In this document: one piece after another, positions 7,760 through 53,094 of the stretch
Layout: every line of letters starts with the position of its first letter
How positions within the stretch are numbered: the first letter of the stretch is position 1
From: Chthonomonas sp. UBA2017
Lineage (GTDB): Bacteria; Armatimonadota; Fimbriimonadia; Fimbriimonadales; Fimbriimonadaceae
Assembly (NCBI GenBank): GCA_002335425.1
Contig: DDCB01000036.1
Coordinates: 11,470 to 75,469, forward strand
Reading direction: 5' to 3'
Length of the DNA stretch: 64,000 bases
Translations under genes and position numbers: made by a program
Notes under the pieces: generated by a model
Databases searched by the model: none
Seen by the model: only the letters and a program-made list of their open reading frames with translations
Told to the model about the DNA's origin: nothing

Positions 7760-10700
7760 CTAGCTGCAGCCGCTGGTGGCGCCGCAGGTGTTGCACTTCA
7801 GGCAGACGCCGTTGCGCACCAGCGTAAAGCTTCCGCACTCCTTACAGGCCTCGCCTTCGTAGCCCTTGACACGAGCTTCGTGAAGCTGGGCTTCGAGCTT
7901 GGCCGAGCCAGGCACCATCGTTGGGGCCACCGCGCTCGGAGGCGCAATCGCCACGAGGTCGACGGGAGCGGACGGAGTGGGGCTGGCGAGCCAAGCCGTC
8001 GGGGCTGCCTCGGCGGGGCCGGTCGGCTTACGATAGCCTCGGGCCTCGTCGTGATGGCGGCTCGTGCCCGGCACATGGCCATCGACCACGGCTCCTTCCT
8101 CTTCGGCTTCGAAGTCCGGACGCTGAGCCGGACTCCCCATGGCGTCCCCGCGCAAGTCTTCGGGTTTGACTTGCACCAAGTCGGTCCGGTCGAGGTACGA
8201 AAGAGCGAGTTCGCGGAAGATATAGTCGATCACAGAAGTGGACATCTTGATGTTTTCGTGACCGGTGACGCTTCCGTTGGGTTCGAAACGAGTGAAGACA
8301 AACGCTTCGACAAACTCCTCCAGGGGAACCCCATATTGCAGACCCAAAGAGACCGCAATCGCAAAGCAGTTCATCAACGAACGGAATGCCGCTCCCTCGC
8401 GGTGCATGTCCACAAAGATTTCACCAAGACTGCCGTCTTCGTATTCCCCGGTTCGGATGTAAACCTTGTGACCGCCCACGCGGGCCTTTTGCGTATAACC
8501 TCGTCGTCGAGCCGGCATCTGGCGTCGCTTGGCGATGTATCGATACACCAGCTGCTTTGCTGCGGCGATCTGAGGTGATTCGGCGGTCGCACCTTCGAGC
8601 GAAGCTTCGAGGATGGCGGCAGCGGCATCATCGACGGCCGAATTCAGCGGCTGACTGAGCTTGCTACCGTCGCGATAGAGGGCGTTGGCTTTGAGGGCCA
8701 ATTGCCACGAGAGAAGATAGGCCTTTTCGATATCTTCCAGGCTCGCTTCGCTGGGAAGATTGATTGTTTTGCTGATCGCACCACTCAGGAAAGGTTGAGC
8801 TGCCGCCATCATTCGGATGTGGCCCTCGTATTGAATAAACCTCTTCCCCTCTGAGCCGCACTTATTCGCGCAATCAAAAACTGGATAGTGTTCGAGTTTC
8901 AGATGGGGTGCACCCTCGATCGTCAGGGTGCCACAAACGTAGGCGTTTGCTTGTCGAATTTCGTCTTTCGAAAAGCCCAATGCTTCGAGCATATTGAACG
9001 ACCAGTCGTTGATCTGATCATCGGTCAGTCCGAGATAGTCACGGCAGAAGTCATCCCCCAAGGTGTAGCGATTAAAGACGAATGGAAGTTCAAAGGCACT
9101 TTCTAAACTTCGTTCGACTTTATCGAGTGCTTCTTGAGTGAAACCTTTGGCCTTGAGACTTTCTGGATGGATCGCGGGGGAACCGATCAAGGACTTGCGC
9201 CCGACGGCATAAGCGACAATGTCCTCAATCTGTTCGGTCTGGTAGCCCAGCCTCTCCAGCGCAATCGGCAAGGATTGGTTGATAATCTTAAAGTATCCGC
9301 CGCCGGCGAGCTTCTTGAATTTGACCAACGCAAAGTCGGGCTCGATGCCGGTGGTGTCGCAGTCCATGATCAGACCGATGGTGCCGGTCGGCGCGAGCAC
9401 GGTCACTTGAGCGTTGCGATATCCGTGGGCTTCGCCCAGCGAGTGGGCTTGATCCCAAGCCTCACGCGCGGCCTTGAGCAGTTCGGTCGGACATTCGTCC
9501 GGATCGATCCCGACGGGCGTGATTTCGAGCCCTTCGTATTGGCTCGCGGGGGCGTTGTAAGCCGCCCGTCGATGGTTGCGGATGACGCGCAGCATCGACT
9601 CCTTATTTCGGGCGTAGCCGCTGAAGGGGCCCAATTCGCGGGCCATTTCGGCGCTACAGGCGTAGCTTTCGCCGCCGAGAATGGCGGTCAACGATCCGGC
9701 AATGGCAAATCCTTGCGGGCTGTCGTACGGGATCGCCATCTGCATGAGGAGCGCGCCAAGATTGGCGTAGCCAAGGCCCAGAGTGCGGAAATCGTAGCTC
9801 AGCTGAGCGATCTCCTTGCTGGGGAATTGGGCCATGAGGACGCTGATTTCGAGGACCATAGTCCAGAGGCGGATGGCATGGCGATACCCCTCGACGTCGA
9901 ATTGGCCGGTTTGCGGATCGTAAAGCGTGACGAGGTTGATCGAAGCCAAGTTGCACGCAGTATCATCGAGGAACATGTACTCGCTGCACGGGTTGCTGGC
10001 GTTGATGCGCCCGTCGGCAGGGCAAGTGTGCCACTCGTTGATCGTGGTGTCGTATTGGGTGCCGGGATCAGCGCTCGCCCAGGCGGAATAGACGATGTCT
10101 TCCCAAAGGTCTCGGGCGCGGATTCTCTTGGTCACTCGGCCGTCGGTACGAGCTTTGAGCTCCCATTCGGCATCGGCCTCGACGGCCTGCAGGTACTCGT
10201 TGCTCAGTCGAACGGAGTTGTTTGAGTTCTGACCGCTGACGGTGTTATAGGCTTCGCTTTCGTAGCCGGTGTCGTAGGTCGGAAACTCGATCGCGGTCGC
10301 GCCGTTCTCGGCGAGTTGGATCGCTCGTTGGATGTAGTTGGGCGAGATCTGAGCGGCTTTCGCCTCGGCGATCGCCCGAAAGAGGGCGGGATTCTTACGC
10401 GGATTGAATTTGTCAGCCTCGGCTTCGGGAGCTTCGAGCCCCTTGTGGCAAGCCTGGATGACCGCGTTGAGGTGTCGCTGGTTCAGTTGCGAACCGGTGA
10501 CGAGCGAGGCCACCTTTTGTTCTTCGACCACCTTCCACTTCACGAAGGCTTCGATGTCGGGGTGATCAACATCCAGGCAGACCATTTTGGCGGCGCGGCG
10601 AGTGGTGCCGCCGGACTTGATCGCCCCGGCGCTTCGGTCGCCGACTCGCAGGAAGCTCATCAGACCGCTACTCTTGCCGCCGCCGCTGAGGTTCTCATTT

Positions 10701-37072: not shown

Positions 37073-39142
37073 CTAGCGAGCGGTGATGAACCGACCCGCA
37101 CTGCTGAACGGCTCATCGTCGAGCGAGGCGTCAACCAAGACCAAACTGACGGTTTTGGCTCCGGCTCGGGTGAGAATTTCGTAAGCATTCGGCACCGACC
37201 GGAAGTTGGTCGACCGGGCACTGATGATCAAGCAAACATCGTCTGCCCAGCGCGCCATTCGAGAGGCATCGGCCAGAAGGTCGCATGGCGCGGTGTGAAG
37301 AATCACAACGTCGCCCGCGGCCTTAATCTTGTGCATCAATCGGTCGAAATCTTCTTCGGACAGGTTAATCAGATCGGTCTTGCCCTCGGATCCCGTGGGC
37401 ATTACAAACAGGTTGTTGTGGACACTCGCATGGAGATAACTATTGACATCCGCGTCAGCTCCGGCAGCCGCCAGGTCCAGAAGACCATTTTTCCCGCCCA
37501 TGTCGACAAGGTTCGTCAGGAGCCGCCCACGCGGATTCGCATCCACCAGGACGACTTTCTTGCCGGTCCGGGCCACCGATATGGCCAACTGGAGCGCGCT
37601 CGCAGAGGCCCCTTGGACGTTTCCGGTGCTCGTGAACATGATCGTCTTCTTCAGATTCGGATCAGAAGCCAGCATCGAGAACGCCATGTAACGGAAGCTC
37701 TCAAACGGCTGCCCGTCGGGCTGGGTCAACCTCTTGATGTTGCGCGCCATCATCGCCTTCGGCAAAGCCGGGACGGTCGCCGCGACCGGGAGGCCGGTGA
37801 GCTCGGCCAGCTGGGATGAGGTGTGAACCCGGAGCTTGAGCGATTCTCGACCGAAGCTGAAGATCAAGCCCAAACAGACGCCCGCGAGGGCCCCGACGAT
37901 GCTGAACTTCAGCAGGTCCGGTGCGACGGGGTCTTCATTCTCCGTCGCAGAGAACGTCACGGCAGCTGGTCGGCTCACCACATTGGCCCGGTTCTTGAGG
38001 TCTTCGGACATCCGCTTGAGGTTTCGATACTTTTGATCAAAAATCTCGACATCTCGGCTGAGATTCACCAGCATGTCTTGTTGTGCGGGCGCATCGTCCA
38101 GCTTCTTTTGGAACTCCTCGATCTTCGACTCCAGCTGGCTCAAGTTCGCTTGGAGGTTATCGCGAATCACTTGGGCCCGAACGAGGTCTTGTCGAGTCTG
38201 CTGTCGAATCGGCTCGGGCGAGACGTTTCGGCCCGCCTTGGTCATCGGCTTCTGCTGCTCGGCCCTCAGAAGCTTTTCGACCTGAGCAATCTCTTGCTCC
38301 TTGTTTTTCACTTCGATCGCGTCGGGCATGAAGCGACCCAGGAGTTGCTCGCGCTCGTTGCGCAAAGCCGCCAATTGGCCCTGATAGGTTTGAACCGCCT
38401 GACTCTGCTGCTCAACGGTCATGCTGGTGTAGGTCTCGTCGGTCATCCGCGCAAGTTGGCGTTCATACTCCCGAACGTCCGATTCAGCCCCTTCGAGCTG
38501 AGCTCGGACCGTCGCGGCTTGGACCTTCATCTGCTCGATGTTCCGCACCCGCTCGCCGGTTTGAACGTCGAGATTCGGCAGGCTATTCTCCGACTTGTAG
38601 GCCTTGAGCTTTTCTTGGGCTTCGGTCATGTCTCGCTCAGCGGCAACGATCTGTTCGCTGAGATAGTTCAAGGCGTCGTTGACGGAGACCCGAGCGTTCG
38701 ATTGTCGAATCTGGTTGTAAGCGGCGGCGACTTCGTTCGCCAGATCAGCCGCCATCTTAGGCGAATAAGCCTTCACGGTGATATCGGCGGCGTTCGAGTT
38801 CTCTTGCCCCGACACGTTGTACATTCGGTAGTATTTTTCGAAATCCTTGACGATATCGTTCAGGTTTTCGCGCTCAGCCACTCGGCGAAAAGCTTGGAAA
38901 AAGACGCCAGGCGAAGCCAAGACGCCCAACTCCGTTTCTGAGGATCGAGGGGCGCCGCGATCCAGGATCGACTTTACGTCAGCGGTCATCGTCTCCAGCC
39001 CCGCTCGATTCTGGAGGTCTTCACCGACGATGAGCTGAGTACGACCCTCGTAAATCTTCGGGCTCGAAAGGCCGATCGCTAGAGCGACCAAGAGCCCCAA
39101 AATCCCGAATAAAACCGTTCGCCTAAAGTGCAGCTTCCACAT
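37073..39142 (-). CDS. polysaccharide co-polymerase (Wzz/GumC-type) fused to a degenerate BY-kinase-like P-loop domain
   Basis: N-terminal TM helix, Wzz-like domain, long coiled coil and a second TM helix. The C-terminal CpsD/CapB-like fold has altered motifs (TSTGNVQGAS, VVLVDAN, VVILHTAP) and no terminal Tyr cluster. Confidence 0.75.
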   Translation of the reverse strand: MWKLHFRRTVLFGILGLLVALAIGLSSPKIYEGRTQLIVGEDLQNRAGLETMTADVKSILDRGAPRSSETELGVLASPGVFFQAFRRVAERENLNDIVKDFEKYYRMYNVSGQENSNAADITVKAYSPKMAADLANEVAAAYNQIRQSNARVSVNDALNYLSEQIVAAERDMTEAQEKLKAYKSENSLPNLDVQTGERVRNIEQMKVQAATVRAQLEGAESDVREYERQLARMTDETYTSMTVEQQSQAVQTYQGQLAALRNEREQLLGRFMPDAIEVKNKEQEIAQVEKLLRAEQQKPMTKAGRNVSPEPIRQQTRQDLVRAQVIRDNLQANLSQLESKIEEFQKKLDDAPAQQDMLVNLSRDVEIFDQKYRNLKRMSEDLKNRANVVSRPAAVTFSATENEDPVAPDLLKFSIVGALAGVCLGLIFSFGRESLKLRVHTSSQLAELTGLPVAATVPALPKAMMARNIKRLTQPDGQPFESFRYMAFSMLASDPNLKKTIMFTSTGNVQGASASALQLAISVARTGKKVVLVDANPRGRLLTNLVDMGGKNGLLDLAAAGADADVNSYLHASVHNNLFVMPTGSEGKTDLINLSEEDFDRLMHKIKAAGDVVILHTAPCDLLADASRMARWADDVCLIISARSTNFRSVPNAYEILTRAGAKTVSLVLVDASLDDEPFSSAGRFITAR

Positions 39143-39337
39143 TGCTTTTCTCTAACCTTGCCGGACGTTACGGCATCCCAGGCCTTCCTTGGACCCAGCT
39201 TGCCACAACCTAACGATACCAGAATTTTTGAGTTCTGGCAGAGATTGAGACGAGAACGGGGCCCACTTTGTAGCTTCGGAAGGCTTCCCTTGAGTCAACA
39301 GGCTCGGCGGATCAAAGATTCCCGGTCCAGCGCAGGC

Positions 39338-40048
39338 TCAGTAAGCGCCATCGCCTCGAAGAACGGCGAGCGGAGTCTTGAGCAGGAGCTTCAAGTCGGT
39401 CATCACGCCCATCTCGCGGATGTATCGATGATCCAGCTCGATCCACTCGTCAAAGGAGAGGTTGCTTCGCCCCATGACTTGCCAAAAGCAGGTGATCCCA
39501 GGCTTCACGGTCAGTCGCTGAAGAGCGTGTTCGCTGTATTGCAAAACCTCGTGGGGAATCGGCGGTCGGGGACCGACTAGGCTCATATCACCCTTCAGAA
39601 CGTTGAAGAGCTGCGGCAACTCGTCGAGGCTGTACTTGCGAATGAAACGCCCGATCGGAGTCACCCGAGGGTCGTCCTTCATCTTAAAGATCGGCCCATC
39701 CTTTTCGTTTTGAGCCTGAAGCTTCGCCAGGTGCTGATCAGCGTTTACGTACATCGAGCGAAACTTAATGAACTTGAACTTTCGCCCGCAAAGGCCCACC
39801 CGGGTGGAGAGATAGAAAATCGGGCCGCGGCTCGTCAGCTTCACCGCCAACATCAGCGCCAAGAAGATCGGGGACAAAAGCAAGATCAACACCAGCGACC
39901 CCAAACGATCCAGGATCAGTTTACGCTTGAAATAGGTCACTTCCACCGGCTTGAGGTCGAGGCAATTCTCGACTCTCAAATGAGCGTCCTTCGGAAGTTC
40001 AGCCCTCTCAGGCTGGATCGGTTGAGAGTCTTGGGATATGTGAACCAT
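39338..40048 (-). CDS. polyprenyl-phosphate sugar-1-phosphate transferase (bacterial sugar transferase, WbaP/EpsL-like)
   Basis: One TM helix followed by [25 protein letters not shown] and [21 protein letters not shown]. Confidence 0.85.
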
Positions 40049-42017: not shown

Positions 42018-42159
42018 AGCCCCTTGATGGTACTAGATTCTGCCCCGCCCTGCGTGGGCCCCGCGGGCTCATTCTTGAATCACGCCCCCGTTTATGGGCT
42101 GGCGCGTTTCACTAGCTTTTCAATCCACTGTTGAAAAACCTGTTCACTCGTTTCGCTCG

Positions 42160-43755
42160 TCAACAATTTTTTTTTTCCAAGGCAATCATTTCCTTCGCAA
42201 GACTCTGGACTTGCGTCTCTAGGTCAGACGTCTCAACTCTCAGAATCTCGTACTCTGATGATCCTCCCCCGTTCGCAGGTGAACGCACAAGATTCGAGTA
42301 CACCCGACGCATGGACCCGTGGTAATCATCAGTTGTACTGCGCATCGTGTAAGGAATCTCAACCTCCTTACCTCTTAAAACCGTGTAAACGCCCTTATCA
42401 ATCCCCAGAACAACAGGCAGAAAGGCCTTCGCTCCAGAACCCGAGATGATGAGGATCTGAAGCCGAGAACGACGATTACCAAGCCAGTAGAATGCCTTTT
42501 CCCGATCCATTTTTACTTTTATCTCCTTGTTTTCCAGGATTTCTACGGGCCTGAGTTCATCCTTGTCGATAATATACTGGACAGAAAGACTCTTCGAATA
42601 TTTTTGTTGCAGTTCCTCAGCACCGAGCGCATCGTAAGCGTCCTCCAGGATTTCCAGATGCTTCCGGAACTGAAACTTAAAGTACTCCGCGCCGATGAGT
42701 CGATAAGGCATGGGAGTTAAGTCGCTTTCATCTTCATCGTCTTCCAAAAGCAACGGCTTAAATGACCTTTGGATGACTCCGAAAGATTCATCTTCTTTAT
42801 CACCGCTTTGCTTAGGGTTAAAGCACGGCACGCGCTCATCCTTTTCTCGGATAAACCGCGAGGACTTCCGATAAACGTCACCCGCCATTTTGTAGGCGCA
42901 GACGCCATGTGGTATTCCATGGGTCCTCTCTTGCGAAAGTTCGAGAACCCGGGTCCAGGTTTCCTCGTGGCGCCTTCCAAAAAGATTTAGAATGCAACAA
43001 CACGTCGCCATCGTCTCGATCCAGATTTCATAATGCCGACCAACGACAACGTGTTTAATATGTTCTACTCTGCCGTTGACCTCTTTGTAGAGTTCTTCGA
43101 GGGTGTCACCTTTTGAAAAGTATCCAGAGAGACCTGATAGAGCGTCCTTCAACTGGGTCTTATCTTCATCTTTCACTTCCTCGACACCCGTATCGGAAAC
43201 CGTAGGGTCACTTTCTTTAATCTTATCTACGTATTCACCTAGTGACTTTTGGTACCGCTCTGAGAAAAGCAGATGATTCAACACAAGATCGCCTTGAAAC
43301 TCCGAATAGCTCTCGATGCCCGCTAAGTAGATTCCGAAGTCCTTAACAAATCCAAGAACAGCGGTCAACGCACTCTCGTCACCAACAGCGGTCAACGCAC
43401 TCTCGTCACCAACAGCGGTCAACGCGCTCTCGTCACCAAGACCGTCCAACGAGCTCTTCATCCATATTTTCGACCACCTTTTGTTTGCGCTCCACGGGAA
43501 GCTAGGCTTCCGTGTATTACTCCATGCCCCTTGTTTACTGGCATCTTTTAAACTCTTACATATTGACGACCCCAAAAACATTTCCCCGAGTTTTCGCTCT
43601 ACGGACTGCTCTAGGTTCTTCTCGGACATCACATCTCGCATGTTGAAACAGACAAGGGTTGCCAAGTCTGCCAACACCATATATGGATTTTGTTTGAAAC
43701 GAAAAATACTTCGAAGAGTCTGCTCGTCTTGCCTGATCCAGGAATCGATGTTCAA
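42160..43755 (-). CDS. hypothetical protein, island gene 3 of 3 (soluble, acidic, His/Cys-rich core, 3x9-aa repeat)
   Basis: 531-aa ORF in AT-rich DNA. The TTG start at 43755 overlaps the upstream stop (TTGA); the first ATG is at 43680. I recognise no family. Confidence 0.7.
   Translation of the reverse strand: MNIDSWIRQDEQTLRSIFRFKQNPYMVLADLATLVCFNMRDVMSEKNLEQSVERKLGEMFLGSSICKSLKDASKQGAWSNTRKPSFPWSANKRWSKIWMKSSLDGLGDESALTAVGDESALTAVGDESALTAVLGFVKDFGIYLAGIESYSEFQGDLVLNHLLFSERYQKSLGEYVDKIKESDPTVSDTGVEEVKDEDKTQLKDALSGLSGYFSKGDTLEELYKEVNGRVEHIKHVVVGRHYEIWIETMATCCCILNLFGRRHEETWTRVLELSQERTHGIPHGVCAYKMAGDVYRKSSRFIREKDERVPCFNPKQSGDKEDESFGVIQRSFKPLLLEDDEDESDLTPMPYRLIGAEYFKFQFRKHLEILEDAYDALGAEELQQKYSKSLSVQYIIDKDELRPVEILENKEIKVKMDREKAFYWLGNRRSRLQILIISGSGAKAFLPVVLGIDKGVYTVLRGKEVEIPYTMRSTTDDYHGSMRRVYSNLVRSPANGGGSSEYEILRVETSDLETQVQSLAKEMIALEKKNC
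43358..43438 (-). repeat. 3 x 27-bp perfect-phase tandem repeat inside island gene 3 (encodes GDESALTAV x3)
   Basis: acagcggtcaacgcactctcgtcacca occurs at 43358-43384 and 43385-43411. The third copy, 43412-43438, has one a->g change. Confidence 0.95.
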
Positions 43756-45239
43756 ATCGCGGCCTCCTGAAAAAGAAAATCGATGAGTTCGACCTCATCA
43801 GGATTATTGCTCTGGGGATTCTCTCTTATTTCGCACCCCAAGAATCTAGCTCTGGTTCTAATATACTCTTCTAAGATGAACTGGAACTTCTTAAGGCAAC
43901 CCTCTCGATCGAGTTTTCCATCGCTGATGTCTTCTCTGTTGAGCACTTGACTCGAAGTGTTGGCGAGTGCATCTCTAAGCAACTGCTGAGCGAACTCATG
44001 ACTTCCAGCTCCCAGCAGTCGACAACAGGCTTCGATCTTATCCCAGCTTTTGATCTGAAATCCTTGATCAAGTTTTAAAGCGCCACCAAGCCGCTTTTTC
44101 GCCTCTTCCATTTCCCCGTACCGAAAGTAGCTCTTATCAAACTGCGTTGACAAGAGAATACTGGCGATATATGACTCAGCCCTTGAGCCACGATCATAAT
44201 TTCGGACGAGAACGTTCTCGTAGGTGGTGGCAAGTCGATGCTGGCTCAGCTGTCCCCCACGGTTTTCGTCATAATCTTCGTGTAGAGCTCTGGAAAGCGC
44301 AGTCGCTTCATCACTTGTCTCGATCATTTGATAGGTTTCGTCCCCGATCACGTGCGCCCAGATCGGCGCAAGACCCACTCGGATTCGAGCAGGAAGAAGT
44401 TTTGAGTCAACATAATTCCTGTCTTCCTTCTTTTTCTGCTCATTGTATTTTTCGAGAGCTTTATAAATCATCAGCATCGTGTAGACTAGCCCGTAAAAGA
44501 ACCTTGCATCACGACCGACACTGGATGTCCAGAACTGGACTCTCACAGGGGCATCGGTGAGAAACCGCGCGTGACGCCTTCCCCTTTCATTGGCCACATG
44601 AAGCGAATCGCTGTATTGAGTCAAAGCTCTGAGGACATTATTGGAACCTGAGGACAGAACGTTCCTCCACTCGTCTTCTAAGCCCGGGACGGGTTGAAAT
44701 AGTGCCCACTCCTGGTGGACTTCCCAGAATCGAATCGTGGCCGTGAGTCGAATTCTCGACTGAGGTTGCGCTTCGTATTGCTCCAAGAAACAGGAGGACC
44801 ACTGGTGGCGCTCACTGTATCCCAAGATGCGTTCAGCAAGGTGAACTAGCTTTTTTTCTTGCTCTTCGACGGTCCTGTCGAGCTTTTCTACGACCTCGCG
44901 AACTTCTTCGGGAACTTCTTCCAGAGCGGCATCATGGTCTGCAGCGACAATAATAGCAACAAGTGCCATGGCAAAAACCGCAGGGAGGTACTCGTCCTTC
45001 ATGATGAGGGCGAAAGTGGCAGATGGTGTAATTGCCACTGTGTATGAGGCTATATTGACCCAGCGATCGAGCTTTACACGCTCCTCACCGAACGCGGATC
45101 TACGGATGATTGACTTAAGCTTCTTTTTCAGCTTCATAGCGTAGAACGCAATGAAAGATAGCAAAGCTACGACGATCAGTTGCAGGATCGCGTCAGCAAG
45201 GTCTTGCTTCCCGCCACTTCCGGCCAGGAGATCAATCAT
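43752..45239 (-). CDS. hypothetical membrane protein, island gene 2 of 3 (3 N-terminal TM helices + ~390-aa cytoplasmic domain)
   Basis: 495 aa. ATG 45239 overlaps the upstream stop (ATGA). TM segments are ~14-35, 60-80 and 84-100. The rest is helical and charged. I recognise no family. Confidence 0.7.
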   Translation of the reverse strand: MIDLLAGSGGKQDLADAILQLIVVALLSFIAFYAMKLKKKLKSIIRRSAFGEERVKLDRWVNIASYTVAITPSATFALIMKDEYLPAVFAMALVAIIVAADHDAALEEVPEEVREVVEKLDRTVEEQEKKLVHLAERILGYSERHQWSSCFLEQYEAQPQSRIRLTATIRFWEVHQEWALFQPVPGLEDEWRNVLSSGSNNVLRALTQYSDSLHVANERGRRHARFLTDAPVRVQFWTSSVGRDARFFYGLVYTMLMIYKALEKYNEQKKKEDRNYVDSKLLPARIRVGLAPIWAHVIGDETYQMIETSDEATALSRALHEDYDENRGGQLSQHRLATTYENVLVRNYDRGSRAESYIASILLSTQFDKSYFRYGEMEEAKKRLGGALKLDQGFQIKSWDKIEACCRLLGAGSHEFAQQLLRDALANTSSQVLNREDISDGKLDREGCLKKFQFILEEYIRTRARFLGCEIRENPQSNNPDEVELIDFLFQEAAI

Positions 45240-45739
45240 GATCCTCTACCCTGAGGACCCTGGTCGCGTTGAGGAATAATGCTAGGCGGAGTTGGGGTTA
45301 ACTCACTCTCTTTTTCATCGGGACGAACTCCTTGTGGGTGCAGATGAAGATTTTGGACATCAATATTGACCGACCCGCTAGGAGAGATGTGTTCCTTTTT
45401 AGCTTGCCGAATCATGATTATGAGAACAAGAAGTCCGAATAGTAGAAAGAACAAAATTAATGCTACTGAGGAATTCCTGATGTCCCTAGTGATGACAAAT
45501 TTTTTTTGCTTGGCAAGCCGCTCGGTCTCCGCTTTGTGCACGGCACTTTCAGCCTTGTCGCGCAAGGACTCGATTTCAGTTAGCACTTCTCTTTCGCTCG
45601 CCGTCGCTTCTAGTTTCAAGAGTTCCTTGATTTTGTCCATTCGTCGATTCCTATTTGCGTCGAATTCCTGGCTGAGCTTTTCAAGCTCTAGCCGCCCCCT
45701 GATCTCCCAGTAATTCCCAATCTTATGAATATCAGCCAA
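45236..45739 (-). CDS. hypothetical small membrane protein, island gene 1 of 3 (coiled coil + single TM)
   Basis: 167 aa from TTG 45739, with a GAGGAA Shine-Dalgarno-like box ~11 nt upstream. The N-terminal 85 aa are heptad-like and charged. The TM helix is SVALILFFLLFGLLVLIIMI (res 91-110). Confidence 0.6.
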   Translation of the reverse strand: MADIHKIGNYWEIRGRLELEKLSQEFDANRNRRMDKIKELLKLEATASEREVLTEIESLRDKAESAVHKAETERLAKQKKFVITRDIRNSSVALILFFLLFGLLVLIIMIRQAKKEHISPSGSVNIDVQNLHLHPQGVRPDEKESELTPTPPSIIPQRDQGPQGRGS

Positions 45740-45854
45740 AGTAGCGAGTCTTCCTCATGATGCGATTGACCCTCTTTCCCATTTTCCGAATCAGCGCAAA
45801 ACGCCTCTTAGGATCCCCTTACACCTTCTAACGTCAGCTTACCAGACAGTTAGT

Positions 45855-45869
45855 CGCACTTCAAGTGCG
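45855..45869. promoter_or_regulatory. 7-1-7 palindrome upstream of the island operon (candidate operator)
   Basis: cgcactt-c-aagtgcg lies ~120 nt upstream of the gene-1 start. Confidence 0.3.
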
Positions 45870-45934
45870 CTCTGATTTCTACGTGGGGGAGAGCGAATGG
45901 CCAAGGCAAAGAACTTGGGCCCGGGGACGAAGAA

Positions 45935-45971
45935 GATCGGGGCGGGGCGGATGATCCGCCCCGCCCCGATC
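45935..45971 (-). terminator. strong GC hairpin just downstream of the thioredoxin-domain gene
   Basis: Perfect 16-bp stem gatcggggcggggcgg/ccgccccgccccgatc with loop atgat, 26 nt after the stop at 45997. Confidence 0.65.
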
Positions 45972-45996
45972 GGGCGATATTGCTCTTGAGTCGAGC

Positions 45997-48474: not shown

Positions 48475-49041
48475 GTGGTGTCCCGCATCCTGAACGAATC
48501 TGCCCGAAGCCCTTATGACGCCGACCTGATGTTGGTCGATCGCTTCTTGGCGGGAGATGAGTCCGCCTTCACCCGGATTTATGAGGATTACTACCCGCGC
48601 GTTTTTGCGCTCGCCCGAGGAATCCTGATCGACTCCGATGAGACCGAAGACGCCGTTCAAGAGGTCTTTACACAGATTTATCGCAACCTCGTTCGATTCG
48701 ACCGGCGAAGCAAGCTCAGCACGTGGATCTTTCGCATCACGGTGAACCGGACCATCCAATACGGACGGACTCTCAAGTTCAAGCGACGCCAGGTCGAACT
48801 GGAGCAAGCCGCTCACCAAGCCGCTCCGGATGCTGCCCTTTCCATCGCCGACCCCCGCATCGCTAGCGCCATGCGCAAGCTAGTCGCCAGCGATCGCGCC
48901 GTCTTGACCCTCTACTATTGGCAGGAGTTGAGCTTAGCCGAGATCGGGCAGAGCCTCGGATGCAACGAAAATGCCGCCAAAACAAGGCTCTTTCGGGCTC
49001 GAGATCGATTCAAGAAACTTTACGAGGCCGAACTCGGATGA
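48475..49041 (+). CDS. ECF-type RNA polymerase sigma factor
   Basis: GTG start. Region 2 is DAVQEVFTQIYRNLVRFDRRSKLSTWIFRITVNR. Region 4 is LSLAEIGQSLGCNENAAKTRLFRARDRF. Confidence 0.85.
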   Translation: MVSRILNESARSPYDADLMLVDRFLAGDESAFTRIYEDYYPRVFALARGILIDSDETEDAVQEVFTQIYRNLVRFDRRSKLSTWIFRITVNRTIQYGRTLKFKRRQVELEQAAHQAAPDAALSIADPRIASAMRKLVASDRAVLTLYYWQELSLAEIGQSLGCNENAAKTRLFRARDRFKKLYEAELG

Positions 49042-49844
49042 GCCGAATTCCGCAAGCCCTGGACGAACTCATGTGGCTCTTGGCCGACCAAGAGAGCCCC
49101 GAGGCGATCGACAGCTTCATTCAGAGATACCCGCACCTTCGTCGCGAGATGACCCGACGCGCCCTGGCGGTGAAGGACCTGCGGCAGTCGCGGCCTCAAG
49201 AAGATCGGATTCCCGTTCCGGCGTTCCGAAAGCCGACATCGGGTCCTCTGCCTGCCCCGTTAAAGTCCTTTCGGCTTCAGACCGCCTCGCTCTTTGTGGG
49301 GGCGGCGGGTCTCGTTTTTGCGGCATTTGTCGCCGTGCGAATTGGGCTCGCTCCTGCTGAGCCTGCTTCGGAATCTGCGGCCGCTGTACTGGGCTCCCCA
49401 GAATCTGCTCCGATGCCGGCTCCCATGGGGACTCCGATGACCAAGAACTCGGCCGATCTGGCCCAGGCCGACCGCACGGGCAACGCGAAGGCAGAACCCG
49501 AAGCCGCCACCGCTCCGGCCGAAGGAGCGACTCCTTCGCCGATGGACGCCAGAAGCCCCGAGAACCCCGCCAAGAACCTCGATCTTCGGACCGCCCGCAA
49601 GGTCACGATCCGGATGGAGCAAGCTGACCTCGAGGATGCGGTGCGGCTGGTTTGCGCCAGCGCGGGCCTGGAGGCTCAGATCGCGCCCGGCATGCCACAA
49701 TTCAAAATCAACTTGGAGTATCGCGAAACCCCGGCCCTCGAAATCCTCCGCGAAATGGGGGCGAATTTCGGGTTCTCCGTCTTTGAGCAAGGCCAAGGCG
49801 TGGTTCTCATTGTGCCCGCCGTGGACAGCCGATTCGACCCCTGA
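49038..49844 (+). CDS. putative membrane-anchored anti-sigma factor
   Basis: ATG 49038 overlaps the sigma stop (ATGA). A short N-terminal helix domain is followed by TM helix LFVGAAGLVFAAFVAV. After an Ala/Pro-rich linker comes a C-terminal STN/secretin-N-like module. Assigned by position and architecture only. Confidence 0.5.
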   Translation: MSRIPQALDELMWLLADQESPEAIDSFIQRYPHLRREMTRRALAVKDLRQSRPQEDRIPVPAFRKPTSGPLPAPLKSFRLQTASLFVGAAGLVFAAFVAVRIGLAPAEPASESAAAVLGSPESAPMPAPMGTPMTKNSADLAQADRTGNAKAEPEAATAPAEGATPSPMDARSPENPAKNLDLRTARKVTIRMEQADLEDAVRLVCASAGLEAQIAPGMPQFKINLEYRETPALEILREMGANFGFSVFEQGQGVVLIVPAVDSRFDP

Positions 49845-50618: not shown

Positions 50619-51535
50619 TCTCGGCGAACGAGCTGCCTTCCGCCTGCGATCAAGAGTCCGACCCCCAGCACCGCCGCGACGCCCTGCAAGGCCATCCAAC
50701 CGGGTGAAGCCGCTGCTTGGGAGTTCTCCTTCGCCTCGACCTGAGGAAGATTCTTGGGCCATTCGCCGGCCCACCGAGCCACAACACCACCCGATCCGTT
50801 CTCACGCAGATCGAATATCTTCGTTCCGAAGGGGATAATATTCTCCGGGAAGATTCGAGGCTTGGGGTCCACCATCTTGAATTCAAATCGCCGAATTTTT
50901 CGGCCGAAAGCTTGTAGGGTCCATTCGCCGCGCGTCCGGTCTCGGGAGGTGTTGCCCTCGATCATTAGCTTCATCAGAACGTCAGCACCTGAAAACTCTT
51001 TGAATTCTAACTGGTTCCGCTCGGGTCTCCAGACGATCACCGTCTGAACACCCGTTTTGGATTCGCGAACTAATAGACCCTGTTCATCGATTCTGATCGG
51101 CTGACCTCGCCAATTTGACAAGATAAGGAGCTGCGCAAAGGGTGTCGACAGGTAGGCGGCTCTGTCGGCCGAAATCAGTTCAGCCCCGTAGCCCCGAGTC
51201 GCGAGGCAGATCTCTCCGTCAAAAATCATGACGCGTCGGCCAGGGGGACCCGTTCGGTCGAGCCCTGGAGGTTGCTCGAAATGCATCGCCCGTTTCCCGT
51301 CTTTCATTTTCCCGACGTAGAGCTGAAACGTCTTCCGCCGATCCGATCTTTGAAACTCAACTTCGGCCCTGACCTGGGCGGGGTCGCGCAAAATTATATT
51401 CTGCGGGTGGATGTCTTTGTCGCTAAACTTTGGATCACCGAACTCGGTCTGCGTGATTTGATAAGTCTGAGCACTCGCCACCAGCGCAATAACTTGAGTC
51501 ATCACAATGAAGGCCCCCCGAGCGATTGTTTTCAT
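50615..51535 (-). CDS. hypothetical secreted protein with C-terminal hydrophobic anchor + basic tail
   Basis: ATG 51535 overlaps the upstream stop (ATGA). Signal peptide MKTIARGAFIVMTQVIALVASAQT. The C-terminus is SPGWMALQGVAAVLGVGLLIAGGRQLVRRD. Confidence 0.55.
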   Translation of the reverse strand: MKTIARGAFIVMTQVIALVASAQTYQITQTEFGDPKFSDKDIHPQNIILRDPAQVRAEVEFQRSDRRKTFQLYVGKMKDGKRAMHFEQPPGLDRTGPPGRRVMIFDGEICLATRGYGAELISADRAAYLSTPFAQLLILSNWRGQPIRIDEQGLLVRESKTGVQTVIVWRPERNQLEFKEFSGADVLMKLMIEGNTSRDRTRGEWTLQAFGRKIRRFEFKMVDPKPRIFPENIIPFGTKIFDLRENGSGGVVARWAGEWPKNLPQVEAKENSQAAASPGWMALQGVAAVLGVGLLIAGGRQLVRRD

Positions 51536-51891
51536 GGATTCAATCCGTCGCATTCATAGCCTCGCTCAGACCCTCGGGAAATTGAAATCACATAACTTTC
51601 GTCACAAGAACAACCAAGCGCCGAAATATGGCAAGGGTGAGTTCGAATTTCGTATTGAGCGATCCCACCGTTAGAGGGATCCCAATCTACACAATCATTC
51701 CAGGGATCATAGTGGCACCGACCTTCCAATGTGCGCTTTGTTGCACAAGTACCACTTGCCACAGTACAGTCAGCAAGAACGCACTCGTCAATTCTATTCC
51801 AATCGGTCCAAGCAATCTTGCAATCGTATAGGCCTGATGTGGCGGGCAGGGTCATTGAAAGAACTCCGATACAAAGTAAGAACTTATTCAT
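51532..51891 (-). CDS. small secreted cysteine-rich protein (10 Cys in mature part)
   Basis: 119 aa with signal peptide MNKFLLCIGVLSMTLPATSG. ATGA overlaps occur at both ends. The local DNA is AT-richer. Confidence 0.55.
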   Translation of the reverse strand: MNKFLLCIGVLSMTLPATSGLYDCKIAWTDWNRIDECVLADCTVASGTCATKRTLEGRCHYDPWNDCVDWDPSNGGIAQYEIRTHPCHISALGCSCDESYVISISRGSERGYECDGLNP

Positions 51892-52604
51892 AGTGATTGA
51901 TCTCCTAACGTTTTGAAAATGGGCAACTCACTCCTCTGCTCATGCTCAGTAAGGCGACAAGCGTCAAGAACATTGTCCCCTGGAACAAAGGGCGCAAATT
52001 GAATCACAGTTGGATGAAGAAACCCCACGTGGCCATCGAGAAAGAAATAGCTTCCGAGTCCATTGTACACCGACGATTGGCGAGGCTCAATAATTCGACC
52101 TTCGTGAGATCGCATTTCAGCGTGGTGCTGAAGATAATGATCAGAAGTGTGTGTCACTGGGAGCGCAAAAGTTACTATTCCCTTTTCTCCACGCCACTGT
52201 CCAAAAGTGTGTTCAACAAGCATGACAGTACGGCTCGATCGAAGTCCATAGACACTCACGAGACTTAGGCAATCATTGAGCGCGTATCCTGTAGCAAAAC
52301 TCGCATTCGCATGAATTCCGAAAAGTGGCGGACAAATTTTTTCGGGGTCGGTCTTGCAGTAAGTTCGGATCTGTCGGTACCATGCTCCCTTCGACAAGTC
52401 TTCATTGGAAGCCAGTTGATTCGCGTTGTCCTCAGCATACTGCAACTGCCCAAGACCTAAAATTCGTAAATTCTGGGTGGATTCGACCTTTTTTGCCGAA
52501 ATTCTTGCGCGACTAAAAACCGGAGTGAGCAAGGCCATGAGGACCCCCAAGATCGCCACCACGACCAAGATTTCGATGAGCGTCAACCCTCGGAGCCGCT
52601 TCAC
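51888..52604 (-). CDS. prepilin-type N-terminal cleavage/methylation domain protein, DUF1559-like pseudopilin
   Basis: GTG start. KRLRGLTLIEILVVVAILGVLMALLTPV is a class III signal with a methylation-motif region. The C-terminal FFLDGHVGFL matches the DUF1559 'DGH' region. Confidence 0.8.
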   Translation of the reverse strand: MKRLRGLTLIEILVVVAILGVLMALLTPVFSRARISAKKVESTQNLRILGLGQLQYAEDNANQLASNEDLSKGAWYRQIRTYCKTDPEKICPPLFGIHANASFATGYALNDCLSLVSVYGLRSSRTVMLVEHTFGQWRGEKGIVTFALPVTHTSDHYLQHHAEMRSHEGRIIEPRQSSVYNGLGSYFFLDGHVGFLHPTVIQFAPFVPGDNVLDACRLTEHEQRSELPIFKTLGDQSL

Positions 52605-52918
52605 TTCTTCGCCTCCACCAAAATCGGCGTCACCTTTTTGTTCAAGATGCTTCGCCGGCCCGCGGATTGAACGGTGACGGCAATCCGAAACGGCTCTCGG
52701 GCCATGAGCACGCTCGCTTTGACATAGGTCACCATCGCTTCAGATCGAAAGGGCGCGATTTTCAATTTCGACCGCTCCGCCTTGGAGCAACAGCTCTCCC
52801 CGGCTTCGACTTCGATCGTGCTCAAGGTTCGATTGCGAATTTCGCTTTCAACACGAATCCACTCACTCGTTTTCGCCAAGTTCGACGGGACCCTCGCCGG
52901 CTTGACATCGAGCGTCAC
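52601..52918 (-). CDS. DUF1573-like Ig-fold protein body (N-terminus apparently out of frame; full gene would be 52601-53030)
   Basis: The 105-aa ORF starts at GTG 52918 and has a ..EAGESCCSKA.. motif. The upstream ATG-ATG at 53030/53027 encodes MMKTWHEAAVIELLISQQLGG in another frame, joined through a G9 run. Confidence 0.45.
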   Translation of the reverse strand: MTLDVKPARVPSNLAKTSEWIRVESEIRNRTLSTIEVEAGESCCSKAERSKLKIAPFRSEAMVTYVKASVLMAREPFRIAVTVQSAGRRSILNKKVTPILVEAKK

Positions 52919-52965
52919 CGCGAGCGGATTCGCCTGAATCCAGCCTACGCCTCCGAGGAGAAATA

Positions 52966-52974
52966 CCCCCCCCC
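52966..52974. repeat. C9/G9 homopolymer at the 5' end of the DUF1573-like gene
   Basis: Nine consecutive C on the + strand (aaata-ccccccccc-aattg). Confidence 0.95.
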
Positions 52975-53094
52975 AATTGTTGCGAGATCAACAGTTCGAT
53001 GACGGCTGCTTCGTGCCATGTCTTCATCATAGCAAGATTTTCGCGAAAAGCAAGGGTTTTTGCGAGAATTTTTGAAAATACCGGACTGGGAGGG

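Follow-up and report, generated by a model that had tools for sequence, protein, structure and literature searches.

A rare, mobile gene module of two coupled protein families, one membrane-bound and one soluble, in Armatimonadota and metagenomes

A cassette of three genes, here called A, B and C, lies on the minus strand of a 64,000-nucleotide stretch of contig DDCB01000036.1 (positions 11,470 to 75,469, hereafter the window) from Chthonomonas sp. UBA2017, a member of the Armatimonadota. It proved to be a genuine, intact, rare and mobile module of two protein families, B and C, which is usually accompanied by a gene, A, for a bitopic partner. B and C are an obligate, co-inherited and translationally coupled pair, and both are protein families unrecognised by every curated library that was tried. 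The role proposed here, with due reserve, is that of a conflict system, which would act either in anti-phage defence of the abortive-infection, membrane-effector kind or in the exclusion of other mobile elements. The genes, in the order in which they are read, are as follows.

45236–45739, minus strand: gene A, TTG start, 167 amino acids (aa); N-terminal coiled-coil-like segment, one transmembrane (TM) helix and a proline-rich tail.
43752–45239, minus strand: gene B, a polytopic membrane protein of 495 aa; three N-terminal TM helices, then a linker that is acidic and coiled-coil, then about 350 aa of cytoplasmic domain.
42160–43755, minus strand: gene C, a protein of 531 aa that is soluble and acidic (isoelectric point 5.4); N-terminal helical region, central core and C-terminal motif.

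All three open reading frames (ORFs) are intact and follow one another in the order A-B-C, with an overlap of ATGA at the A/B junction and of TTGA at the B/C junction. The initial annotation of this DNA, made from the sequence without database searches, had read them as a single operon chained by 4-nt overlaps, and the coordinates as well as both overlap sequences were confirmed.

The family to which the cassette belongs is extremely small. Word-indexed searches of 5.8 billion clusters returned one relative of C other than itself and three of B, and a further search of this type with a C profile brought no additional relatives. The exhaustive HMMER search with the C profile over 1.84 billion representatives yielded 22 C-like clusters at E <= 1e-3, all from metagenome assemblies or metagenome-assembled genomes (MAGs) and carrying at most the name "hypothetical protein". 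A single match was found among 185,579 species-representative genomes, a Fimbriimonas sp. MAG detected with the B profile, while the C profile found nothing on genome contigs and neither the C nor the B profile found anything on metagenome contigs. Searches of 50,697 phage records with tblastn were likewise without a match.

Ten loci were compared: the window copy and those designated L001, L002, L006, L007, L010, L012, L013, L015 and L017. In every one of them a B homologue stands directly upstream of a C homologue. The full-length B proteins of nine loci match one another by BLASTP with E-values from 1e-5 to 1e-122, the weakest match to the window copy being 1e-14. The coupling of the two genes is also retained, since among nine intact B/C junctions six have the 4-nt overlap and two a 1-nt overlap, with a 16-nt gap in L015, and in most loci a Shine-Dalgarno (SD) sequence of the form GAGGAG, AGGAG or AGGAGG lies within the tail of B. 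Pairwise identities of B and of C across loci are correlated with r = 0.92 (36 locus pairs), and B and C have therefore been inherited as a unit. They were found together down to 17–24% identity, which places their association outside the circle of near relatives. In two contigs, at L006:10001-13030 and L016:8152-10888, the B and C genes are split into several frames, either through frameshift errors in sequencing or because these copies are true pseudogenes; the record name contig_102815_np1212 suggests that the L006 assembly is a nanopore one.

The third gene behaves differently from the other two. In eight of the ten loci B is preceded by a small ORF whose product has a single TM helix, often flanked on one side by a segment resembling a coiled coil. 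The two that lack it, L013 and L015, have a B protein with an N-terminal extension that contains an extra hydrophobic segment. Significant sequence similarity was not detected among the A proteins of the different loci, and the coiled coil follows the TM helix in L001, L006, L007 and L010 but comes before it in the window, L002 and L012. Were all A proteins oriented with the N-terminus inside, the first group of loci would have a periplasmic coiled coil and the second a cytoplasmic one. Because no significant similarity is shared and the coiled coil sits on differing sides of the TM helix, A is best regarded as an architectural analogue and not as a demonstrable family. The window copy has a coiled-coil-like span and the single TM helix that had been described for it, at residues 39–79 and, by a strong hydropathy signal, at residues 92–110 (nt 45410–45466). 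Its start is ambiguous: the TTG at 45739 (167 aa) has GAGGAAG 11 nt upstream, and an alternative ATG at 45640, preceded by AGGAA, gives a protein of 134 aa, is the start chosen for this contig by the Joint Genome Institute (JGI) and would bring the TM helix nearer to its position in L002 and L012.

Neither B nor C could be connected with anything known. Both were without a match in Pfam, NCBIfam, PADLOC and PHROGs, where A gave coiled-coil noise only. Against the 5,027 models of PADLOC-DB v2.0.0, which also cover Druantia, DISARM, BREX and the PDC candidates, B and C had no match at E <= 1, and A had only coiled-coil noise at E of about 0.01 (DrmD, Cas6, DruG). Pfam searches with 20 homologues of C and 10 of B yielded no more than noise, and the same was true of profile searches of PDB sequences with profiles of 4, 5, 10 and 20 sequences. 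Regular-expression scans of A, B and C for Walker A and B, HKD, HNH, DEAD, HExxH, CxxC and PD-(D/E)xK motifs found none of them. These results agree with two statements made at the outset, namely that the proteins carry no catalytic signature and that they are unlike the named defence families (Zorya, Kiwa, CBASS, Thoeris, Gabija, Septu), and no match to a characterised family emerged from any of the hidden Markov model (HMM) libraries. The AlphaFold2 models were unusable, with a mean predicted local distance difference test score (pLDDT) of 29.8 for C from a two-sequence alignment and of 38.7 for B from a four-sequence one. The idea that B and C are paralogues of each other was rejected on an hhalign probability of 0.2%. 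Literature searches for a cassette of this kind found no description.

What defines the two families is a set of residues that have persisted over great divergence. In B these lie mainly in two places.

44919–44990, minus strand: signature at TM3 and its cytoplasmic end (residues 84–107), Y-x-P-A-V-x-x-M-A-x-x-A-I-x-V-A-x-[DE]-H-x-x-x-L.
44340–44390, minus strand: second signature (residues 284–300), A-R-I-R-V-G-x-x-x-x-W-x-H-V-I-x-D.

Across 10 B sequences, down to 17% identity, P86, A95, I96, A99, H102 and L106 are invariant in TM3 and its cytoplasmic end, as are W147, G250, I286, W294 and H296 elsewhere. The window copy has both motifs and keeps every residue that is invariant across the family. 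By hydropathy TM1 spans residues 17–35 and TM3 residues 85–103, with a weaker TM2 at about 62–80, which is clear in homologues, so that the three N-terminal helices of the initial annotation were upheld. Behind them lies a predicted cytoplasmic domain of about 350 aa, for which roughly 390 aa had first been given. The TM1–TM2 loop holds ten lysine or arginine residues, and by the positive-inside rule B would have its N-terminus outside and its C-terminus inside, the large domain thus being cytoplasmic. The spacing of A92, A95 and A99 suggests helix packing of the small-xxx-small type. Across the family B varies most in the length of the linker that follows TM3. In the L012 homologue (8103–10004) this linker is expanded at residues of about 130–230 by some 100 residues of repetitive amphipathic helix, an insert unique to that protein and matching the Pfam family Apolipoprotein at 1.8e-05. 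At its other end B closes with a conserved FL-x-EE tail, the conservation of which is explained in part by the GAGGAG/AGGAGG sequence that sits in the penultimate codons of B.

The corresponding features of C include its SD sequence and a repeat peculiar to the window copy.

43763–43768, minus strand: SD sequence for C, AGGAGG, within the last B codons (the conserved ...Q/E-E... tail), 7 nt before the TTG of C.
43357–43439, minus strand: tandem repeat in C (residues 107–133), a 27-nt unit present 3.1 times with 98% matches, encoding 3 x GDESALTAV.
42682–43035, minus strand: conserved core of C (residues 241–358), E243-x3-E247...W267...G280-x-P-x-G-x-C286-x-x-K-x-x-G292-D293-x-x-R296...D-L-T-P348...G355-x-x-Y358, the signature that defines the family.
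42301–42408, minus strand: C-terminal motif of C (residues 450–485), L-G-x-x-x-G455-V-Y...P-[YF]-x-x-R...D-D...S481.

In 20 C sequences, down to 16–18% identity, E247, W267, G280, P282, G284, C286, G292, D293 and G455 are invariant, and E243, R296, P348, G355, Y358 and S481 nearly so. The window copy retains all of the family-invariant residues, and both its core and the LGxxxGVY...P[YF]xxR motif are present. Hydropathy revealed no convincing TM helix. The earlier picture of C as soluble, acidic and endowed with an exact threefold 9-aa repeat was thus correct, and the repeat is an insertion of the window copy in the variable N-terminal linker, absent from all homologues. The His/Cys-rich core that had also been described is mostly unconserved, with C286 alone invariant and no histidine. 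A Cys-His catalytic dyad was accordingly considered and rejected, as conservation of H263 and H479 is confined to the close subfamily.

The cassette is foreign in composition to the genome in which it was found, to a degree well outside what chance would give. At 0.481 its G+C content is the minimum among all 3.58-kb windows of the 64-kb sequence (mean 0.576, standard deviation 0.024), and its tetranucleotide distance of 0.364, against 0.179 +/- 0.040 for the window, makes it the most deviant segment. The G+C content at third codon positions (GC3) is 0.48–0.53 against 0.65–0.77 in the neighbouring genes, and that at second positions (GC2) is also somewhat lower than theirs. The relative synonymous codon usage of AGA/AGG rises from 0.13/0.24 to 1.13/1.20 in the cassette, and CCT replaces CCG. 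Because both GC3 and synonymous usage shift, the anomaly is one of codons and goes beyond the amino acids. The sliding-window and codon analyses, in which the cassette is extreme by all four measures, bear out the foreign composition claimed from a few hand-counted lines of 35–43% G+C; the lines themselves were unrepresentative, no 200-nt window falling below 45%. A second, milder dip in G+C (0.51–0.52) lies at 51000–53000 of the window. The small genes clustered there, one of which encodes a prepilin-type N_methyl protein (L008 838-3141), may form an operon for pseudopilins or minor pilins.

The same pattern holds across the loci compared. Hosts range from 50 to 67% G+C, and at all ten loci the cassette lies 0.03 to 0.11 below its flanks, which are different in each of the ten. 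The cassette is therefore not a syntenic core operon, and repeated horizontal acquisition is favoured. The horizontal origin surmised in the initial annotation is in this way supported by foreign composition together with a differing site in every locus, and conservation at native G+C in one syntenic position was not seen.

At its 5' end the window cassette is set off from the preceding gene by a hairpin and a leader.

45935–45971, minus strand: terminator hairpin with a perfect G+C-rich stem of 18 bp (inverted repeat I1, 100% complementary) and a T-rich tail behind it.
45740–45934, minus strand: leader and promoter region, about 195 nt to the TTG of A or about 295 nt to the ATG at 45640.

The hairpin serves the thioredoxin-domain gene upstream as its terminator, and here the cassette has its 5' boundary. 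No sigma-70 consensus is present in the leader, an Rfam scan of leader and spacers found no RNA elements, and a scan for promoters and terminators gave nothing above shuffled expectation except the boundary hairpin. An imperfect, G+C-rich direct repeat of 21 nt (42039–42059 and 45955–45975, 76% identity, within chance expectation) brackets the cassette. Its upstream copy, at 45955–45975, lies inside the terminator hairpin and the other 22–42 nt upstream of the glmS start, and the pair could be the remnant of a target duplication or a chance likeness of two hairpins. As an att site it is too weak to be claimed.

The company kept by the cassette varies from locus to locus. In the window it stands between the thioredoxin-domain gene and glmS, adjoining an exopolysaccharide (EPS) cluster. 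This EPS locus, just downstream of glmS at 37073–40048, encodes an initiating sugar transferase (Bac_transf) and a 689-aa chain-length regulator of the GNVR/Wzz type, with a Wzy_C polymerase farther on, as judged from L008. On the other side, about 3 kb from the cassette and on the opposite strand, a sigma-70 factor of the extracytoplasmic function type (188 aa) overlaps the next ORF of 308 aa (268 aa in the JGI call), which has a central hydrophobic stretch, and the two genes (48475–49844) look like a sigma/anti-sigma pair. In the other loci the neighbours are as follows.

L001: atpC.
L006: PhyH and an APH-like kinase.
L007 (the Fimbriimonas MAG): DUF4153 and rpsL-rpsG-fusA.
L010: a glycosyltransferase and DUF6263.
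L013: an enoyl-CoA hydratase and a LysR/MFS cluster, with a TonB receptor also nearby.
L017: an aldo-keto reductase.
L012 and L015: mobile or defence contexts.

Two of these loci deserve a closer description. L012 (JGI metagenome contig 3300071653, 500–21440) is a dense defence island that holds the complete A-B-C trio (132, 633 and 479 aa). Upstream of the trio are PglZ (4e-56), BrxL (5e-172) and a cysteine desulfurase resembling SspA/DndA (1e-87); downstream are a PDC-S11 fragment, DUF6508, an Mrr-like PDC-M36A protein, a phage integrase 2.6 kb from the cassette and a type III restriction–modification system (ResIII with an N6/N4 methylase). In L015 a gene for a 595-aa integrase is directly upstream of the cassette and an element of the insertion sequence (IS) family IS21 downstream. 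Among 83 pooled neighbours from the loci other than L012 PADLOC found only a weak PDC-M08B match and a "DrmD" match. The latter was rejected as evidence of defence, being the IstB ATPase of IS21 in L015. The PADLOC model concerned, PDLC02630 (260 positions), matches the IstB_IS21 ATPase at L015:9283-10047 (minus strand) from end to end, with E = 1.5e-49, and it seems to describe IstB-like proteins and not the SNF2 helicase DrmD, with a risk of false defence calls beside IS21.

What the cassette does must be judged from such context, and a role in conflict, be it abortive-infection or membrane-effector defence against phages or the exclusion of competing elements, is the single most likely function, though we would stop somewhat short of giving it an even chance. 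It is favoured by a composition that is foreign to each host, by patchy distribution and variable sites of insertion, by the fast-evolving accessory parts and by the contexts of L012 and L015. The anti-phage or conflict role first proposed for the cassette is thus plausible by its context in the L012 island and beside the integrase and IS21 of L015, although the neighbours at the other loci gave no genuine defence match. Given their translational coupling and co-divergence, B and C would assemble into a complex of fixed stoichiometry on the cytoplasmic side of the inner membrane. The sensing or enzymatic part may be C, alone or together with the cytoplasmic domain of B, and the TM bundle of B, with its putative small-xxx-small packing and the invariant [DE]-His at the boundary of membrane and cytoplasm, may be the part that acts on the membrane. 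A, which is fast-evolving and coiled-coil, would be an accessory or regulatory partner.

Several observations weigh against this reading. A defence neighbourhood was seen in only one of about eight loci with usable flanks, a small sample, and no integrase, tRNA or defence gene is near the window copy, which is surrounded by housekeeping and EPS genes. No copy was found on IMG/VR viral contigs or in phage or plasmid records. A catalytic, nucleotide-binding or pore-forming domain was not recognisable by the HMM libraries, by Pfam searches with the homologues or by the motif scans. A, with a coiled coil that changes sides between loci, may not be one functional component. Finally, because structure prediction failed, the division of labour among A, B and C is a matter of inference.

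A further step, and a rather doubtful one, is to regard A-B-C as an immune or conflict system of a categorically new kind, anchored in the membrane and made up entirely of undescribed folds. C, with its Cys/Glu/Asp signature, would be docked on B and detect the invader, whereupon the membrane would fail or some other new effector would come into play, and the hypervariable A would provide specificity or serve as a safety catch.

A possible but less probable alternative to the conflict role is that the cassette is an accessory membrane module with a physiological task, for example in envelope stress, membrane remodelling, surface or secretion functions or adaptation to a niche, which has been horizontally acquired. 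Most loci, the window included, place it among housekeeping, envelope or metabolic genes (glmS, EPS, pseudopilins, DUF4153, LysR/MFS), only one has defence neighbours, and no nuclease, NTPase or toxin domain can be recognised in the proteins. A physiological module would be expected less readily in a family so extremely rare and patchy, the functions of the neighbours are inconsistent across loci and point to no conserved pathway partner, and the cassette is AT-rich in ten of ten hosts with integrases or IS elements beside two loci. Rarity, AT-richness, adjacency to integrases and IS elements and inconsistent neighbours together fit selfish or conflict cargo better than they fit a physiological module.

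That the cassette is selfish cargo of integrative elements, for addiction in the manner of a toxin and its antidote, for superinfection or entry exclusion or for maintenance, with the isolated copies as remnants of decay, appears unlikely. The integrase immediately upstream and the IS21 element downstream in L015, the integrase in L012, the foreign composition in every host and the weak 21-nt repeat around the window cassette all agree with such an origin. Against it, neither an integrase nor a transposase nor a tRNA is near the copies in the window, L007 and L010, the plasmid, phage and viral records contain no copy, the flanking repeat is no better than chance would give, and proteins of about 500 aa, one of them polytopic, are unlike classical toxin–antitoxin pairs.

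It is very improbable that the cassette is a lineage-specific core operon, inherited vertically and low in G+C by reason of its amino-acid composition or of low expression. The sole match in a species-representative genome is indeed a Fimbriimonas MAG, and the lowered GC2 would agree with an effect of amino-acid composition. The genomic position, however, differs at every locus, the cassette is missing from all but one of the 185,579 species-representative genomes, distant members lie in flanks of high G+C (0.66–0.67), with LysR and TonB-receptor neighbours in L013, and GC3 and the synonymous shifts (AGA/AGG, CCT for CCG) set it apart at the level of codons. The notion that these are open frames arisen by chance, with no genes behind them, could cite only the missing annotation and can be dismissed, as homologues at 17–35% identity keep the motifs, the gene order and the coupling in independent JGI, ENA, NCBI and Logan assemblies.

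If the cassette is indeed a defence or conflict system, its three components are without detectable relatives in curated libraries or solved structures and would bring new folds to the field, and possibly an unfamiliar means of linking cytoplasmic sensing to the membrane. Its sources are little-studied lineages without cultured members, the Fimbriimonas (Armatimonadota) MAG among them, from which, to our knowledge, almost no immune systems have been described. Whatever its function, it is a new two-family gene module with clear signatures and a conserved design of translational coupling, and it offers residues for testing: E243, E247, C286, D293 and R296 in C, and H102 and H296 in B. Its significance is tempered by the extreme rarity of the family and by a function that is wholly inferred.

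A comparison with known systems helps to place the cassette. It resembles Kiwa in being a compact, accessory and island-borne operon in which a polytopic inner-membrane protein (KwaA in Kiwa) is joined by a larger soluble partner (KwaB), with no obvious enzymatic motifs. It differs from Kiwa in having no PADLOC match to KwaA or KwaB, in a C protein that is not DUF4868, in the third, bitopic component that is usually present, and in the build of B, which has three TM helices fused to about 350 cytoplasmic residues where KwaA is a 4-TM protein. RexAB of phage lambda, an abortive-infection system with a soluble sensor (RexA) and a membrane effector (RexB), offers an analogy of proposed logic, in that a cytoplasmic partner would control a small bundle of TM helices through which the membrane is compromised. 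Pfam and PHROGs show no homology, however, the proteins are of very different size, the searches revealed no prophage context, and the mechanism of the cassette is the conjectured one set out above.

The pairing of a 3-TM protein with a single-TM partner, and the long helical or coiled-coil segment after the TM helices, also recall the 5:2 stators of the ZorAB, ExbBD, TolQR and MotAB kind. This reading was rejected. No MotA_ExbB, ZorA or ZorB match was found in Pfam, NCBIfam or PADLOC for B and 10 of its homologues, and the TM helix of A is without an acidic residue in the window, L001, L002, L006, L007, L012 and L017. Such a residue in the bitopic subunit is essential for proton-driven stators. 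The cassette also lacks a peptidoglycan-binding domain, and the short TM1–TM2 loop of B is unlike that of ExbB or TolQ. The first 105 or so residues of B share the predicted topology of a class I holin (three TM helices, N-terminus out and C-terminus in), with a cytoplasmic TM1–TM2 loop rich in lysine and arginine and a charged segment after TM3. The likeness is one of topology only, as Pfam and PHROGs gave no holin match, B is five times larger (495 aa against about 70–150 aa), and no endolysin, spanin or lysis cassette is nearby.

The cassette is thus not a member of the Kiwa, RexAB, stator or holin families. In its general character it resembles the "PDC" candidates of PADLOC and other uncharacterised cassettes of defence islands, which likewise are operons of uncharacterised proteins beside known systems, as the cassette is in at least one island (L012). 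It stands outside the 5,027 PADLOC v2 models and is far rarer than typical candidates, with its 22 clusters in 1.84e9 representatives. What is new about it belongs to the level of protein families. As a system it is of a familiar type, that of the orphan, mobile and membrane-anchored cassettes which are sometimes found in defence islands, and orphan cassettes of this kind are common in metagenomes.

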